DNA of 64,000 nucleotides from Candidatus Marinacidobacterales bacterium (GTDB lineage: Bacteria > Acidobacteriota > Vicinamibacteria > Marinacidobacterales > DATDRI01). The notes below the pieces were generated by a model, which saw nothing but the letters and a program-made list of their open reading frames with translations, made no database searches and had not been told where the DNA came from. The position numbers were made by a program, and so were the translations under genes. Positions 3,739 through 46,502 of this stretch are shown in pieces. The stretch's first letter is position 1. Every line of letters begins with the position of its first letter. The DNA is taken from positions 4,128,001 to 4,192,000 of the forward strand of contig CBDCNP010000002.1 of NCBI GenBank assembly GCA_965219415.1. The letters run 5' to 3'.

Positions 3739-4210
3739 CCTCCTCCTCGCGACATAGACAAACCGCCATGGACTATCTCAAAACTTGGCGGCTCGGGCAA
3801 CTCGAGAATTCGTGTGGTTGGATCCACATCCAACCGGTTGGATTAAAACCCCCCAATTGTATACCGAGGTTTCCGCCAGATGATGCGAAGCCGTTTGAAC
3901 GCAGCAGCTTATCCCGAGCCGGACTTCCGGGTTCTGCTGGCATTAGAATTGCTCTATGTCACGCGTGCGGGGTATGGGTGCCACGCAACCTCGGACAACC
4001 CGCCCCGCGAGCGACGCTTCTAGGGGCATTGAGCCGAGCCGAGAAACTGACAAGCCCCCAACTTTTTTGACTCCTAGGCCCATTCTGGGTCACAAAGGTC
4101 GCGGGAGTAAGTGTACACCGTGTACCATCCGTCATATCTAGTCACAAACGCAAGGTATTAGGAGGGTATGAGCCTTGATTAGTATTGCCCCGAACACAAG
4201 GAGGAAGATC

Positions 4211-23570: not shown

Positions 23571-23879
23571 AGACGGACTCGTTCCGTGACGGATGGTAAT
23601 GGATACAAAAGTGCCTCGAGAAGCGACTCATAGTAATGCGTTCCGATATTTTCTAACATACGTCTGCCCTTGGAACTAAGGCAGCTTAGAGGCGCTGTTG
23701 CACGATTTAACCCCGGCGCGAGTAGAGCCGCTTCCCCAACCCCTCGTTCACGACACTGGCTAGGCCAAAGTTTTGTACCAGTCCTTGTGAGAGATATTAC
23801 ATCACAACTTGAAGCCATGAAACTGGGTTTCAGGCAGGTGTATAAGTCCCCCGGGGTGCTTCTGCCATCAAGTGTTGCT

Positions 23880-34378: not shown

Positions 34379-34518
34379 CGTCGTGTCCGAAAACCCGAAC
34401 GGAGCCCGAAAGTTCGAATCCTAGAGGCGTTCTCGAAATTCGCAGAGACCAGCCGACGCGGCCCTTGGTCTGCGATAGGCGCTCTCGAGGGTGCTTCCGC
34501 CATCAAGTGTTGCTACGC
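34379..34518 (+). repeat. end F variant followed by an IS1 (C) end
   Basis: cgtcgtgtccgaaaa; ggtgcttccgccatcaagtgttgctacgc at 34490. Confidence 0.65.
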
Positions 34519-40026: not shown

Positions 40027-41226
40027 GGTGCTTCCGCCATCAAGTGTTGCTACGCGGCCGCGGGCAGTGGTACAGGTGCGGAAGAGAGCGGGTTGCGCGC
40101 CCCAGTGAGCACGAAAACCTCGATCCGCGACCACAAAGGAATCGTCGTCACCAAGAAGATGTCTCGAAAGGTGAGCCGTCGCGTGGTCAGACCGGCCTGC
40201 ATAGCCGGAGTTCGGATCTCACGTCCGAACTTCAGAGCTCCGTGCGGTCGGACGAAGTTGTAATAGCAACGGAGCAACTCCAGGTGCTCATTGAGCCTCT
40301 CCGTCGAGCGAGCGTGAGAAAGTATTCGTCTCGAAAGGTATGCCGAGCTTTGCCGGATGGTCAGATTCAACCGCTCGATGAACGACGTGTTCAATGTCGA
40401 GGAGTCCTCGGAGTTATTGAGCGCGTCTTCAAATCGCCACGCGGCTCCGTGCAGCGCTCTCCGTTCGACCTTGATGATGCGATCGTTCCTGCGCGTTTTT
40501 AGGACCTGGCCGTAGAGACACGCTGGACCGAAGAAGCGACGGATGACTTTCTGGTAGAATTCGAATCCATCCGTGACGATCAGGGGAAGACGTCCGAAAT
40601 TCATCCGTCTCGAAAGGTCGCAAAACAGAGCGTGAGTGTTCCGGTAGCTTCGCCTTCCCGTCACCGTCGATGGCCAGAGCCGAGACCAGACTTCGATTGT
40701 AACGAAGACCCAACTCGGTGTCTTCTTGTTGCCCGCGAACGTGCGAATCTCGTCGGCTTGAAGCTCTTCGGCAGCGAAGCCAGCGATCCTTCTGTGATTG
40801 AATCGACGACACACTTGGGCTGCCTTCTCGAGCCAGCGGGCGACGGTGTTCCAGGCAATCCCTTTGATCCGGGAAATCGAGGAAATGCTGACACCCTCGA
40901 CTCTGAGAGCGATGACCCCATCGAAAGTAGCTCTTCGATGTTGGAGACGGTAGTAGGGCTTGCCTTTCGTCGAAGAGAACGTCTTTCCGCACTCGCCGCA
41001 CCGGTATCGACGGCGTTTCCCGGACCTCGTTCTGTAGAATCCGTTGTGAATAATACTTCTGGAACCGACTTTTCCATACGACGGACATGCGGGATTGAGA
41101 CATCTGCGATTCTTCACTTCGGCTCGGCCCTGACGATGAGAGAACTGTGTCTTCAGAATTCTGGTTCAAACTCTAGCACGCGAACGGGTTACGCGGCAGC
41201 CACCAACACTTCATGGCGGAAGCACC
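40027..41226 (-). mobile_element. IS1-family element, complete single ORF (40050..41117)
   Basis: TIRs ggtgcttccgccat; zinc ribbon, HTH, DE..TF.G.KK, TDG, IERLNLTIR; no TSD. Confidence 0.88.
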
Positions 41227-41820: not shown

Positions 41821-42773
41821 AGCGCGGCAGTGTCGGGGACCGCCTTCAGCAAGGCCTGCATCAGCATGACGTCCACCATCGAGGTCTCGTCAACGACCAG
41901 CAGGCCGCAATCGAGAGGGTTGTTGCCGTTGCGCTTGAACCCACCGCCCTTGGGATCGACTTCGAGTAGCCGGTGGATCGTTTTCGCCTCGAACCCGGTG
42001 GCCTCGGTCATCCGCTTGGCGGCGCGGCCGGTTGGGGCGCAGAGCAGCAGGGTCACGCCCTTGGCGGCCAGGATGCGCAGGATGGCGTTGACGATGGTCG
42101 TTTTGCCCACGCCCGGCCCGCCGGTGATGACCAATGCCTTGGAGGTCAGGGCTAGGCGAACCGCCTCGGCCTGGCTTGCCGCCAGCGACAGACCGGTCTT
42201 CCCCTCGACCCAGGGTAGCGCCTCGCCGGCATCGATATCCGGCCAAGGAAGCTTGCCGCCCGTAATCCGGAGAACCCTCTCGGCGATCACCCGTTCGGCA
42301 CGGTAGAGGCCGCCAAGGAATATACAGGGAGTTCCGGCAACCGCCGCAGCGACGACGGTGCCTTCTGCCAGTTCGAGGTCCAGCGCGTCTTGAACCAACT
42401 CCTTTGACACTTCCAGCAATTCGACGGCGAGCGGTGAAAGCTTTTCGGCAGGAAGGCCGCAATGACCGTCATCCATCGCCTCGGTGAGCGCATGGGAAAT
42501 CCCCGCGCGAACCCGGATCATGGCTGTTTTCTCGATGCCGAGCTTCATGGCGATCGTGTCGGCGGTCTTGAACCCGATGCCGCGAATATCTCGTGCAAGG
42601 CGGTACGGGTTCTCGGTCATGACCTGAACGGCATCCACGCCGTAGGTCTTGTAGATCCACACCGCGCGCGCCGTGCCGATGCCATGGCTGTGCAGGAACA
42701 CCATGATCTCGCGAACGATCTTCTGTTCCGCCCAGGCGTCGGTGATGCGTTTGGCACGCACACGGCCGATGCC
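41821..42773 (-). pseudogene. recD2: RecD2-like helicase internal fragment
   Basis: NPYRLA.DI.GIGF, ITGGPGVGKT, APTGRAAKR, VVDETSM; both ends cut at linkers. Confidence 0.88.
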
Positions 42774-42921
42774 CGTCCTGTGCCAAAGCTCGGCCCTTTT
42801 GAAATAGACCACAAATCAGCAGCTTAGACGCCCTTGGAATCCGCGCAGAATCCAGGGTATTTCGCGCCGCAGGGCTGACTTCCGACCCATTGGGCTGGCG
42901 GATGAATAAATAGAAGGCACA
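42774..42921. repeat. chimeric linker A + B'
   Basis: Inverted full copy at 56683-56829. Confidence 0.88.
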
Positions 42922-43917
42922 ACTCCAAGACCGGCGCATATAATCGTAAATGTCTGGAGGAAACTGCTTCCGGAAGCGAGGGTGATCCAGAATCTCTGGA
43001 AAATCCAGGACACGGACGTAGGACTGGCGCATCTCCATCGTAGAGACGAAGTAGGGACCGCGGAGAATGTTCGACGAGGGACCCAGGGCCACCGGCTTCG
43101 CACCCCGTACGAGTAGCCTCATGTCCTCGTCGCTGTACTCGGATAATGGACTGGCTGCGAAGACAACGTGCAGTCTGTCAACACCGGCCCGAACCGCGGT
43201 GCGCATGGCGCTCACGTGCCGCGCCTCGGCGTCCACTCCAATGCCAGCCCGATGGGCGGCATCCACCAGCGCCTCCAACACCGGCAGTTTCCAAAATCCC
43301 CCGATTTGGATCTGATCGATGTTTGATGCGATGAGCTGTTCCGCGGCCTCGCGCGCCGCTTGTGGAGTCGTCAACCGATAGAAGTTCGAAACGCCGTCCG
43401 CGGCACGATCGCGTTCGGGGTGATTCTCGATGCTTCGCCCTGTCAGGTAGAGACGAGGACCGAGTCTCTTCCCCGATTCGATCGCCTCGCGAAGCTGCTT
43501 CTGTTCCTCGAGTGGACCGCTCGCATTCCGGAAGCTTGTGACACCGGCCATCAGATTGAGCTCCGCTACGATGGCCATGATCTCCGTCTTCCGATCCGCG
43601 AAGTGGGAAACGAACTCGCCAGGGTTCCCGGCTCCTATGTGAAGGAGATGACCGTGCGACTCCCAGAGTCCGGGCATGACCGTCATGCCATTGGTGTCGA
43701 TGACCCGCGCGCCAGAAGGAATGGCTATCGCTCCGACCCGACCGATTGCGTCGATTCGACTGCCCTTCACCAAGACGACGGCGTTGTCGAGAGGTGGACC
43801 TCCGTACCCGTCGACGAGCCTCCCCCCGGCTAGGGCAAGGGTTTCCGAGCGGGCATCTGCTGATGTGGTAAGCACACAAACGATAAGAACCGAGGCCGCC
43901 GATGTCGAGCGGATCAT
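42922..43917 (-). pseudogene. amidohydrolase, C-terminally truncated at end B
   Basis: Signal peptide, GMTVMPGLWESHGH; ORF reads through the linker. Confidence 0.78.
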
Positions 43918-43992
43918 CGGGTCACACTCGCTCCATTATCGTCACCACGCCCTGACCACCACCGATGCAGAGGGTGCTTCCGCCATCAAGTG

Positions 43993-45435
43993 ATGGAATG
44001 GACTCCTCCACTGACATAGACGGCATCGATGTGCCAAAGTCAGTCGAATACGCATCGAAAAGGAGGAGTCCAAATGAAAGATACGACAATCGCTGTGGAT
44101 CTTGCAAAGAACGTCTTCGAGATTGCCATCTCGGGAGAAGCGGGGAAGGTGTCCAAGCAACTCCGTGTGAGTCGACCCAAATTGGTGTCGTTCTTTGCCA
44201 AACAGAGCGCTGCCACCGTGCTTCTCGAAGCCTGCGGCTCGGCTCACTTCTGGGCAAGGACGTTCCGAAGGTTGGGACACGACGTCGTCCTGCTCCCACC
44301 TCACCTCGTGAGGCCGTATCGACGCGGGAGCAAGAACGACCGCGCCGACACGAAGGCGTTGCTCGAGGCCTACAGGAACGAGGAGCTTCTTCCCGTACCC
44401 ATCAAGTCCGTGCACCAGCACACCCTCGCTGCGCTCCATCGCCTGCGCTCAGGATGGCTCTCCACACGGACCGCACGCATCAATGCCGTACGCGGGCTCC
44501 TGCGCGAACTCGGATTCATCATCCCAAAGGGCGCTCACTTCGTCGTGCCCGCCCTCTTCGAACTCGTCGAAGACGCTGATTCTGATTTGCCCGACGTGCT
44601 CCGTTCGCATCTCCGTGATGCCTGCTCCGAGATTCGAGAACTCAAGGACAAGTGCGCTAGCATCGAGCACGAGCTCAAGGCGCTCACCAAGCAGCTTCCT
44701 GAAGTCCAACGACTTCTCGCCATTCCCGGCATCGGACTTCTGGCCGCGACCGCCATCGTGGGCTTCGTCGGCGATCTTCGCCGCTTCCCATCGGGGCGCC
44801 GCTTCTCGAGCTACCTCGGCCTAGTTCCCAAGGAAAACTCCAGTGGCGACATTCGCCGCCTCGGACGCATCACCAAGCGTGGCGACTCCTACCTCCGTAT
44901 GCTCCTCACCCAGGGCGGGCGCGCCGTGCTCCGCGCGGCGAACGTCAGCAAGAGCCCGCCCGACAAGCTCCGCGCCTGGGCTCGGAAGGTCCACCGCTCG
45001 CGGGGACACAACAAGGCCGTGATTGCTGTCGCCAACAAACTCGCCCGGATCGTCTGGGCCGTCTCCACCCGCGAGAGTGAATTCCAGTCGCCGGTGGCCG
45101 CTTAGATTTAGAGGCTCCACTTTCGTGTTTTCCTTTTTCCCTTCCAAAAGAGGCTGCGACGATACCCATCCAACTGATGGCGTACCGGTCGGACCGGCGC
45201 GGGGTCAAGCCAATAGCAACACTGGCCCTAAGAGGTCGTTCAAAGTGATTGGCTCCTCGCGCGCGGATTTTCCATCATGGCCCGGAGCACCCAAGACGCT
45301 CCTCACTGAGGCCGAAGATACGTTTGCAGTCTGACCCACTCGTCACGACGCGATGGATGCGCAGCTTCGATGGAAGATTTATTAAGAAAGGGGCGTGACT
45401 AGAAAGAAAGGGGCTTGACTAGAGGAGTCCAGATA
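43993..45435 (+). mobile_element. IS110-family IS1111-group element inserted in a MITE C2 TIR
   Basis: Tnp 44074..45105 (AVDLAK, LEAC, KNDRAD, SSG...GRITKRGD); subterminal IRs tggactcctc / gaggagtcca; TG core on both sides. Confidence 0.9.
45140..45335 (+). ncRNA. putative seekRNA/bridge RNA of the IS1111 element
   Basis: Downstream non-coding region carries a target match (tagcaacact) and a donor-junction match (ttccatcat); boundaries approximate. Confidence 0.7.
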
Positions 45436-45664
45436 TGTTGCTACGCCATGTTTGAATGCTAGTGTCAGCTGGCCTGCCTGTGTCGGCGAATGCCATTAAT
45501 TAAGGATGTCGGCGTGCACACCAAGGTGTCTCTGAACGTCAGGCACCGTGTGGTCAGCCCAGCCCGCATCGTCGAAAGAACTGCGTCTCTCGAAATCGGG
45601 CCCCCAAACTCTAGCACACGAGCAGGTTACGCGGCAGCCACCAACACTTAGTGGCGGAAGCACC
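45436..45664. mobile_element. remainder of MITE C2 (begins at 43973)
   Basis: tgttgctacgcc...gcggaagcacc. Confidence 0.85.
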
Positions 45665-45694
45665 CAAAATAGCGCTCATGACGCTGCTTCCGCC

Positions 45695-45796
45695 GGTGCT
45701 TCCGCCATTAAGTGTTGGTAAAATGACGCTAAGACTTTACGGTGCATTAAATTACAGCCATGGTCTTTCAAAAGGGCCGAGTTTTGGCACAGGACG
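45695..45796. repeat. chimeric linker C1 + A
   Basis: Inverted copy of 34519-34620. Confidence 0.88.
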
Positions 45797-45914
45797 GGGT
45801 ACCCCCGCCGTAGTCTCGCGGGTGCGCCGCGTGGAGATCGATCGCGAGTACCGCAAGAAGAAGGAAGGCCACACTGCGTCTGATCATGCACCGGTGTTCG
45901 CGGATCTGGATTGA
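45797..45914 (+). pseudogene. exodeoxyribonuclease III C-terminal fragment
   Basis: IDREYRK....ASDHAPVFADL. Confidence 0.65.
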
Positions 45915-46189
45915 CCAGAGTTTATGGCAATCGTTGGTCGAGGCCGGAAAGCGCCTTGCCTACGAGGGAAATATCAGCGAAGACGATGAAATTGTGGCTG
46001 GACAGAAGACGCTACGGGCGCTGACTGAATACCGAGATGACATTGCGCACTGGTGGACGGACACCTGTAGCCCGTCAGAGCATTTCGCACAGAATCCCCC
46101 GCTTCGCTAAGGTTCTCCCGACAGCCCCTATGCACCGGCTCTGGCAACCCAGAATCGCGGTCGCTCACTCGTGTTGACCATGTGCGATG

Positions 46190-46502
46190 CAAGCATGGGG
46201 CCGGCAGACCGGAGACTAATCAAGTTCGGGGCCCGCGGATGAATAAATAGAAGGCACAACCGTCGGAATCGGTCGCGATGCCAACGGGCCACGGTGTTCG
46301 CGTGGACGATGAGCAGGCGGCTCGCCCACACGGGCCACGAACCTCGAAGGGCAACCCAGAAAGCCCGTTCCGTGTCTTCGAGCGGTGGGCGTGGGCGCTC
46401 TTTCTTCAGCGCCGTCACTTGCTGCCGCAAAGCAACGTTCTCCAACACCAGGTCGGCGCGGCGCCGACACATCGCCCGAATGGCACGGACGACGCGGAAC
46501 AA
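46190..46502 (-). mobile_element. rve transposase N-terminal fragment cut by end B (46258)
   Basis: LVLENVALRQQ...RWHRDRFR; gaaggcaca at 46258. Confidence 0.7.

Follow-up and report, generated by a model that had tools for sequence, protein, structure and literature searches.

Positions 43973–45664 of the window, the 64,000-nt stretch of a 'Candidatus Marinacidobacterales' genome analysed here, consist of a 247-bp miniature inverted-repeat transposable element (MITE; 43973–43992 and 45438–45664) that carries a 1445-bp insertion sequence (IS; 43993–45437, plus strand) inside its left terminal inverted repeat (TIR). With a probability that we put at about 0.9, this IS is an autonomous element of the IS1111 group of the IS110 family, encoding a DEDD/serine recombinase followed downstream by a two-loop guide RNA of the type termed bridge RNA or seekRNA. 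Within its own genome the IS discriminates between TIR variants, and does so at bases that the proposed guide covers, and across homologues the loop sequences of the RNA change together with each element's own flanks and ends.

The recombinase gene (tnp; 44074–45105, plus strand) encodes a 343-aa protein with DEDD RuvC-like and Transposase_20 domains, which is matched above the respective cut-offs by the Pfam families PF01548 (DEDD_Tnp_IS110; E 6.9e-12) and PF02371 (Transposase_20; E 3.2e-24) and by the NCBIfam model NF033542 ('IS110 family RNA-guided transposase') at 303 bits against a cut-off of 140. Residues 249–258, GLVPKENSSG, match the GL-P----S(t)G motif found in the C-terminal domain of IS1111-group transposases, which are 330–350 aa long (PMC11187229). 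Candidate catalytic residues, as read from the sequence, are the D of IAVDLAK (from residue 6), the E of LLEACGS (50) and the D..D of NDRAD (88). Among plasmid records, the named relative nearest to the protein is ISPa25, with 45.9% identity over 99% of the length; the only relatives of solved structure are ISCro4 and IS621, both aligned across the C-terminal domain, and the IS621 protein is distant (E 9e-8 in that domain). Perfect 10-bp subterminal inverted repeats are present at 43999–44008 (TGGACTCCTC) and 45422–45431 (GAGGAGTCCA), compared with reported lengths for the group of 11–13 bp (PMC11187229) or 7–17 bp (PMC11208160). The terminal extensions measure 6 bp on the left (ATGGAA) and 4 bp on the right (GATA), which together with a shared TG come to 12 bp in total, a slight difference from the reported IS1111 pattern of a 7-bp (or 6-bp) left and a 3-bp right extension, 10 bp in all (PMC11187229). 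Non-coding DNA amounts to 332 bp 3′ of tnp (45106–45437) as against 81 bp 5′ of it (43993–44073), the longer stretch lying downstream as Siddiquee et al. describe for the group (PMC11187229). An earlier note on this DNA, made from its letters without database searches, had called an IS1111 element at this locus, and the database matches, protein length, motif and subterminal repeats all bear out that call.

The host MITE is delimited by 20-nt TIRs (GGTGCTTCCGCCATCAAGTG and variants). The outer 20 bp of the left TIR (43973–43992), which form the left half of the target and end in AAG-TG, give way to the IS at 43992/43993, where GGTGCTTCCGCCATCAAGTG is followed by ATGGAATGG, that is, CATCAAGTG/ATGGAATGG. 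At the right junction (45437/45438) CCAGATATG is followed by TTGCTACGCC, and the remainder of the MITE (45438–45664) runs from this right half of the target to the opposite TIR, a TTGG-type end at 45645–45664. The point at which the TIR is split is thus ...CATCAAGTG/TTGCTA..., and TG, assigned here to the right end of the IS, is the sole sequence common to both junctions; a target duplication is absent. These strings and coordinates are as the earlier note had given them when it described a TIR split before ttgctacgcc with TG at both junctions.

The insertion point is the same throughout the genome. In the assembly from which the window comes (8.05 Mb, 3 contigs), BLAST with the IS recovered 36 pieces, among them 33 left ends and 29 right ends that extend to the last base. 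All 33 left junctions fall after ...ATCAAGTG of the TIR, in a single orientation, and the 29 complete right ends are followed by TTGCTA in 28 cases and by TTGGCG in one. The 20-nt TIR occurs at 481 sites in the genome when up to three mismatches are allowed, 21 of them in the window against 0.01 expected, and immediately inside it the host family has distinct ends: one reads TTGCTA, and the other TTGGTG, TTGGCG or TTGGTA. Occupancy follows this difference closely: 28 of 104 TTGCTA-type ends carry the IS, compared with 1 of 373 other TIR ends (Fisher p 3e-19), and the contrast persists among ends with an identical left half (CATCAAGTG), where 27 of 102 TTGCTA-type ends and 1 of 44 others are occupied (p 4e-4). 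The discriminating bases, +4 to +6, fall under the proposed guide. Together with the covarying RNA loops described below, the single insertion point and the discrimination between variants uphold the proposal, made in the earlier note, that targeting is RNA-programmed. That note also listed five unoccupied targets in the window, of which four are intact (...CATCAAGTGTTGCTACGC at 34490, 40027, 41580 and 49878; the first, CATCAAGTG followed by TTGCTA, spans 34490–34515 on the plus strand); in the fifth, a variant at 23855, TIR position 9 is T and TTGCTA is replaced by TTGCTC.

The candidate guide RNA (45195–45332, plus strand) resembles a bridge RNA or seekRNA with target-binding and donor-binding internal loops, and four segments on its plus strand match the target and the IS ends. 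On the 5′ side of the target loop, the right target guide (45214–45223, tagcaacact) is complementary to top-strand AG-TG-TTGCTA, and on the 3′ side the left target guide (45239–45247) contains AAGTG (45243–45247), which equals the top-strand left target plus the core and abuts the stem strand AUUGGC. In the donor loop, the 5′ side holds the right donor guide (45266–45278), within which ttccatcat (45270–45278) is complementary to A-TG-ATGGAA of the abutted ends, and the 3′ side holds the left donor guide (45315–45324), with AGATACG at 45316–45322. All four strings had been pointed out in the earlier note and lie exactly where it placed them. Among 2000 mononucleotide shuffles, the 10-nt target match arose in 7, the 9-nt match to the abutted ends in 45, and the two in combination in 1. 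The RNA's guides follow the order seen in IS1111 seekRNAs, in which the complement of the top strand lies 5′ of the complement of the bottom strand and the two overlap in the target, and IS110-type RNAs carry their guides in the reverse order (PMC11187229). [quoted passage not shown]

Folding of the region, a check that the earlier note had proposed, gives a minimum-energy fold of 45106–45437 with a z-score of −3.3, in which all four segments lie within two internal loops. An outer stem (GCGCGGGG/CCUCGCGC) surrounds an inner stem (GCCAAU/AUUGGC), inside which the 5′ and 3′ sides of the first, target, loop carry AGCAACAC and UUCAAAGUG, respectively, with a small hairpin between them; in the second, donor, loop UUUUCCAUCA on the 5′ side and AAGAUACGU on the 3′ side flank another hairpin. 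Of 151 genomes sampled from the phylum, a covariance model (R1) made from five sequences matched 5, and of 151 sampled from the class it matched 28, the genome of the window counted, with up to 22 RNA matches in the sister genome G276. In an alignment of 30 matches, which was fitted to model R1 and is therefore biased towards the structure, 94.0% of cells are paired, compared with 82.5% in shuffles and about 40% when partners are slid, and compensatory changes on both sides occur in 17 of the 32 stem pairs, a number equalled by none of 500 shuffles. The compensatory changes of one distant homologue, L069, also appear in a plain MAFFT alignment. Stems and donor-loop strings are conserved and both sides of the first loop are hypervariable, as expected if the guide model is right, because the first loop would read targets that differ between elements and the second would read conserved IS ends.

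Evidence for a guiding role also comes from homologous insertions, which the earlier note had suggested collecting for target conservation and guide covariation. We compared 16 diverged elements with distinct guides, whose ends were located by fuzzy consensus patterns, and asked how long a run each loop side matches at its own (cognate) and at other (non-cognate) sites. Cognate combinations gave the longer mean run for every guide: 5.9 versus 3.2 for the 5′ target-loop side against the element's own right flank (0 of 20000 permutations, n = 16), 3.7 versus 2.7 for the 3′ target-loop side against the left flank (2 of 20000, n = 16), 6.25 versus 4.89 for the left donor guide against the right end (0 of 20000, n = 16), and 4.71 versus 4.14 for the right donor guide against the left end (166 of 20000, n = 17); these permutation figures overstate the independence of the sample, because the homologues are mutually related. 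The weak model matches L105 and L150 lacked a usable right end or a match.

Closer relatives provide cases in which target and guide can be compared on nearly the same element. Relatives at 92–98% protein identity occur in several 'Candidatus Marinacidobacterales' metagenome-assembled genomes (MAGs). In the 98% lineage all 16 left junctions examined lie in the same TIR, and in the 92–94% lineage 7 of 14 do so and 7 of 14 lie elsewhere; the left junctions of both lineages end in AGTG in 30 of 30 cases. Two of the non-TIR sites have an ordinary right flank, TTTCAAG-TG-TTGCTT (L049) and TATCAAG-TG-TTGCTG (L050), and both keep TTGCT, and three others (L044, L045 and L053) give no right-flank evidence because their right end abuts internal IS sequence. 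What the non-TIR sites retain is the short string covered by the guide and not the repeat, a pattern better explained by RNA pairing than by recognition of the TIR itself. A natural change of target is seen in L047, which is 90.6% identical in nucleotide sequence to the window element across the first 1411 nt. In an otherwise conserved scaffold its target guides read AACAAUCG and UUUGCAGCG, where the window element has AGCAACAC and UUCAAAGUG, and it is located at a matching non-TIR site, CCAG-TG-ATTGTTAT. Its 5′ guide has CGATTGTT as reverse complement, with a mismatch only at the first core base, a G:T pair, and an rG:dT mismatch is tolerated in nature by IS621 (PMC11208160). L155 and L156 were considered as further copies of this variant and both proved to be of the ordinary type. 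At a much greater distance, L069, from a Steroidobacteraceae MAG, has 46% protein identity and shares the scaffold; its guides fit the element's own flanks and ends at the junctions GGTCTT-TG/ATGAGATGG and CCATACA-CG/ATCCTTGA. About 100 bp of the sequence to its left recur in its 3′ part before the right end (3850–3960 and 2330–2413), and L069 seems to carry a copy of a repeat that resembles the repeat around it.

By analogy with tested relatives, the IS would excise as a circle with abutted ends, and the recombinase would be loaded with the RNA, whose target loop would pair with ..AAG-TG-TTGCTA and whose donor loop would pair with the junction ..AGATA-TG-ATGGAA... The target loop would in this way specify ...CAAG-TG-TTGCTA, 20 bp inside one of the two TIRs of a distant IS1-like IS and its MITEs. 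Strand exchange by the recombinase at the shared TG would lead to entry in one orientation, no target duplication and TG at both junctions. On the circle, the abutted ends would bring together TTGACT (45415–45420), an 18-nt spacer and TGGAAT (43994–43999), the latter preceded by TGa, as a putative junction promoter, which agrees with a report on the family in which abutted ends form a promoter and the integrated element has none (PMC11187229). Production of the RNA and its binding by the protein, the circular intermediate and the exact position of the crossover are likewise presumed from these relatives. The host end is probably disabled by the insertion, because the outer 20 bp of its TIR are separated from the rest, and the IS may be regarded, as the earlier note suggested, as a 'hyperparasite' of the host TIR ends.

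Besides the relatedness of the homologues, several observations weigh against this interpretation. A promoter scan of the integrated element found no sigma-70-like promoter, and an Rfam scan of 43500–46200 (E ≤10) returned chance-level matches only, the best (E 0.12) being a microRNA model inside tnp, so that no curated Rfam family fits the RNA. In sequencing-run data, consisting of Logan contigs from four runs, we saw no contig that joins the right end to the left end as a circle junction would, although such contigs drop rare forms. Contigs from RNA libraries match parts of tnp and 45296–45334 at 90–99% likeness (X18 and X17) and 45009–45160 (X19); the first two sets derive from relatives, given that likeness, and none of them is proof of transcription, as DNA carry-over may account for them. 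With regard to the guides themselves, the left donor guide, AGAUACG, which the earlier note had called similar to the right end, AGATA-TG, is the same but for one base, C for T at the core. Of the 28 aligned homologues in which the target loop is visible, 27 have CG or UG at the end of its 3′ side, so that the core bases there are uninformative. A single constant register of the 5′ target-loop side relative to the crossover was tried and fails, with 5, 6 or 7 right-target bases pairing inside the 8-nt loop, and in six homologues (L102, L136, L138, L139, L140 and L150) the present flank fits the guide poorly. The L047-type variant was found by a 19-nt pattern search as a single copy in 1 of 55 genomes of the order. 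Finally, copies in unrelated targets were the observation that the earlier note had named as contrary to its proposal, and the non-TIR half of the 92–94% lineage is in part of that kind, yet each of its seven insertions keeps ...AGTG.

One alternative holds that the recombinase reads the IS1-like TIR through protein–DNA contacts, and that the non-coding matches are leftovers of target and ends with no guiding role. It would fit the poor matches of several homologues, the resemblance of the donor-loop strings to IS ends that lie nearby in the same element, and the lack of a direct sight of the RNA or of an RNA–protein complex. Set against this are loops that occupy fixed places in a fold with compensatory changes and that differ between homologues in step with their flanks, the matching non-TIR site of L047 after a change of both target guides, the ...AGTG retained on the left by all seven non-TIR insertions of the 92–94% lineage, with TTGCT on the right in L049 and L050, and the experimental proof of the guide mechanism in other IS1111 members (PMC11187229). 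We therefore regard protein contacts alone as very unlikely and retain the guide RNA.

A second alternative concerns the copy number, which might reflect transposition or segmental duplication of hosts that already carried the IS more than some 30 separate targeted insertions. The window copy and that at C3:3049816 do have an identical 40-nt outer context, and three other copies adjoin the same further repeat. However, 32 distinct 40-nt outer contexts are found among the 33 left junctions; the hosts at the 30 examined occupied sites vary in kind, in that 17 have no transposase gene (MITEs of 244–247 bp account for 11 of these), 8 are partial derivatives and 5 are IS1-like elements in full or near-full form; the inner flanks of the copies are of at least three sequence types; and transposition would be unlikely for a host with 1.4 kb inserted in its TIR. 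Host copying as the main source thus has very little probability in our judgement, and separate guided insertions are preferred. That the IS is an immobile relic with a decaying RNA, as the missing circle junction and promoter and the presence of fragments and partial tandem copies might suggest, is just as improbable given an open reading frame, eight full-length copies that are identical, 16 more that differ at one base in 1445, and sister genomes with bursts of their own, such as that of G276.

The owner of the targeted TIR is exemplified in full length by a 1200-bp IS at 40027–41226 (minus strand), which encodes a 355-aa IS1-family-like transposase (40050–41117, minus strand); its TTGCTA end, at 40027, lies downstream of the transposase gene and is an empty target. 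The best NCBIfam match of the 355-aa protein is NF033558 ('IS1 family transposase'; E 4.3e-23) at 82 bits, below the cut-off of 100, and Pfam DDE_Tnp_IS1 reaches 19 bits, also under its cut-off. Relatives found with tblastn share 27–30% identity over 86–94% of the length and are annotated as IS1 family transposases. Classical IS1 makes a target-site duplication of 8–9 bp and has ends that begin GGnnnTG. Among 71 TIR-bounded elements in the genome, none has flanking direct repeats of at least 4 bp (62 have none and 9 have 2–3 bp), and the host TIR begins GGTGCTT, which shares the initial GG but lacks TG at the IS1 position. Because the transposase scores below the cut-off and target duplications are lacking, we call the owner distantly IS1-family-like and not IS1; the earlier note's label of an IS1 TIR holds to that extent. 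The family is very abundant, with the 21 TIR-like sites of the window spread over 21479–58743, and the 71 TIR-bounded elements include 25 of about 1200 bp and about 10 of about 240 bp.

Insertion into the ends of another mobile element has precedents within the group. IS4321 and IS5075 (Partridge and Hall 2003) reportedly target the 38-bp TIR of Tn21-family (Tn3-type) transposons in Proteobacteria. They too are IS1111-type elements with subterminal inverted repeats that enter another transposon's TIR at a fixed point and in one orientation; they are set apart by that Tn21-family TIR, in place of which the acidobacterial genome here offers a distant IS1-like TIR and its MITEs. In Coxiella burnetii, IS1111 has an insertion hot-spot in a MITE family, with twenty insertions in copies of QMITE2, a MITE resembling repetitive extragenic palindromes (REPs) that has no known autonomous partner in that study (PMC5896051). 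That case differs from ours, in which the autonomous IS is present and is also hit, 5 of the 30 examined occupied sites being full or near-full elements. The seekRNA elements ISEc11, ISKpn4, ISPst6 and ISPa11 resemble the window element in having the non-coding region downstream of tnp, in guide order and in the overlap of the guides in the target; natural retargeting between the close relatives ISEc11 and ISXne4 is comparable to that of L047 (PMC11187229). The differences are that these four have been tested experimentally, the window element being described from its sequence, and that they go into a linear site, attC sites and REPs, not into an IS1-like TIR (PMC11187229). ISPa25, the closest named relative, is listed among the attC-targeting IS1111-type elements (PMC11187229) and so differs in target as well. 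The IS621 bridge RNA (PMC11208160) likewise has two internal loops, one for the target and one for the abutted ends, each with a left and a right guide and a shared core dinucleotide; it differs in that the RNA lies in the left end, the guide order is reversed and the core is CT instead of TG.

Bridge RNAs have been predicted at the right end of 93% of IS1111 elements (PMC11208160), and right-end guide RNAs of such elements have been tested (PMC11187229). As IS1111 guide RNAs and IS1111 elements that target TIRs or MITEs are both already published, the window element is a further, well-supported case of a published kind, and it leaves the known mechanism unchanged. Literature searches that combined seekRNA, bridge RNA or MITE with IS1111 found no IS1111 element aimed at an IS1-like TIR, nor one of this kind pointed out in Acidobacteriota. 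The element extends bridge/seekRNA elements to Acidobacteriota and adds a case of one mobile element aimed at the ends of another. It also provides a natural specificity experiment within one genome, where some 480 near-identical TIR sites differ at a few bases and the contrast in occupancy offers insight into the mismatch tolerance of an IS1111-type guide RNA without an assay, and homologues with different target loops on one scaffold are potential material for the study of how IS1111-type guides are read.

A wider reading would make the IS an order-wide RNA-guided parasite that holds a second transposon family down, and would have a 3′ module, consisting of the guide RNA and the right end, spread independently. 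It draws on the occupancy of about a quarter of cognate ends, ends of autonomous copies included, and we consider it unlikely. If such a module does spread by itself, tandem arrays of RNA modules behind full copies would be accounted for, as with ssr9, which spreads with ISPpu9 (PMC12288879). Arrays of this form do occur: behind full copies lie, head-to-tail, one to three partial copies retaining only the 3′ part; examples are C3:3315125–3316853 in the same genome, loci L031, L039, L040, L043–L046 and L056, and G276:C1:3051995–3053216, and one relative has arrays of up to four RNA modules 300–400 bp apart. The partial copies start at varying element positions (624, 852, 950, 1028, 1086, 1117 and 1159), several of them after an internal ..AG-TG. 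They may reflect insertion of the IS into itself followed by deletion, or autonomous movement of the RNA module in the manner of ssr9. An origin from a single internal pseudo-target was considered and is doubtful: the start points differ and at least one junction appears microhomology-like.

Further observations concern the ends of the IS and its surroundings. Two tandem 20-nt units (AAGAAAGGGGCKTGACTAG) lie at 45384–45423 (plus strand), the second of which holds the possible −35 box TTGACT; the unit is present twice in the window IS, once in the 98% relatives and in two copies of the same genome, and three times at C3:4789523–4790953. At the left end, the subterminal repeat is also the 5′ arm of an 11-bp hairpin (z-score −3.9; 43999–44009 with 44061–44071), where it pairs with GGAGGAGUCCA, which contains the tnp ribosome-binding site. 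This string also stands ahead of the start codon in L102 and L104, and at that position L105 has GGAGGAGTC. Such a hairpin could block translation of read-through transcripts. Among the run contigs, record 22 of X18, from an RNA library, matches 45184–45204 and 45308–45334 with 99 other letters between them as against 103 in the window, and represents a relative whose scaffold edges are the same and whose middle part, spanning both binding loops, is different. Contig ends that come loose at 45436 in X1 and X19 run into ...CCATCAAG or ...CACAATCAAG, which are intact TIRs elsewhere, already present in the genome. The outer flank of the window copy is duplicated at C3:3049816. Just outside the MITE, a 482-aa open reading frame (42469–43917, minus strand) has an amidohydrolase-like start and then passes into MITE-derived sequence (...FQKGRALAQDG...), and for this reason the amidohydrolase-like gene seems to have been interrupted by a MITE.

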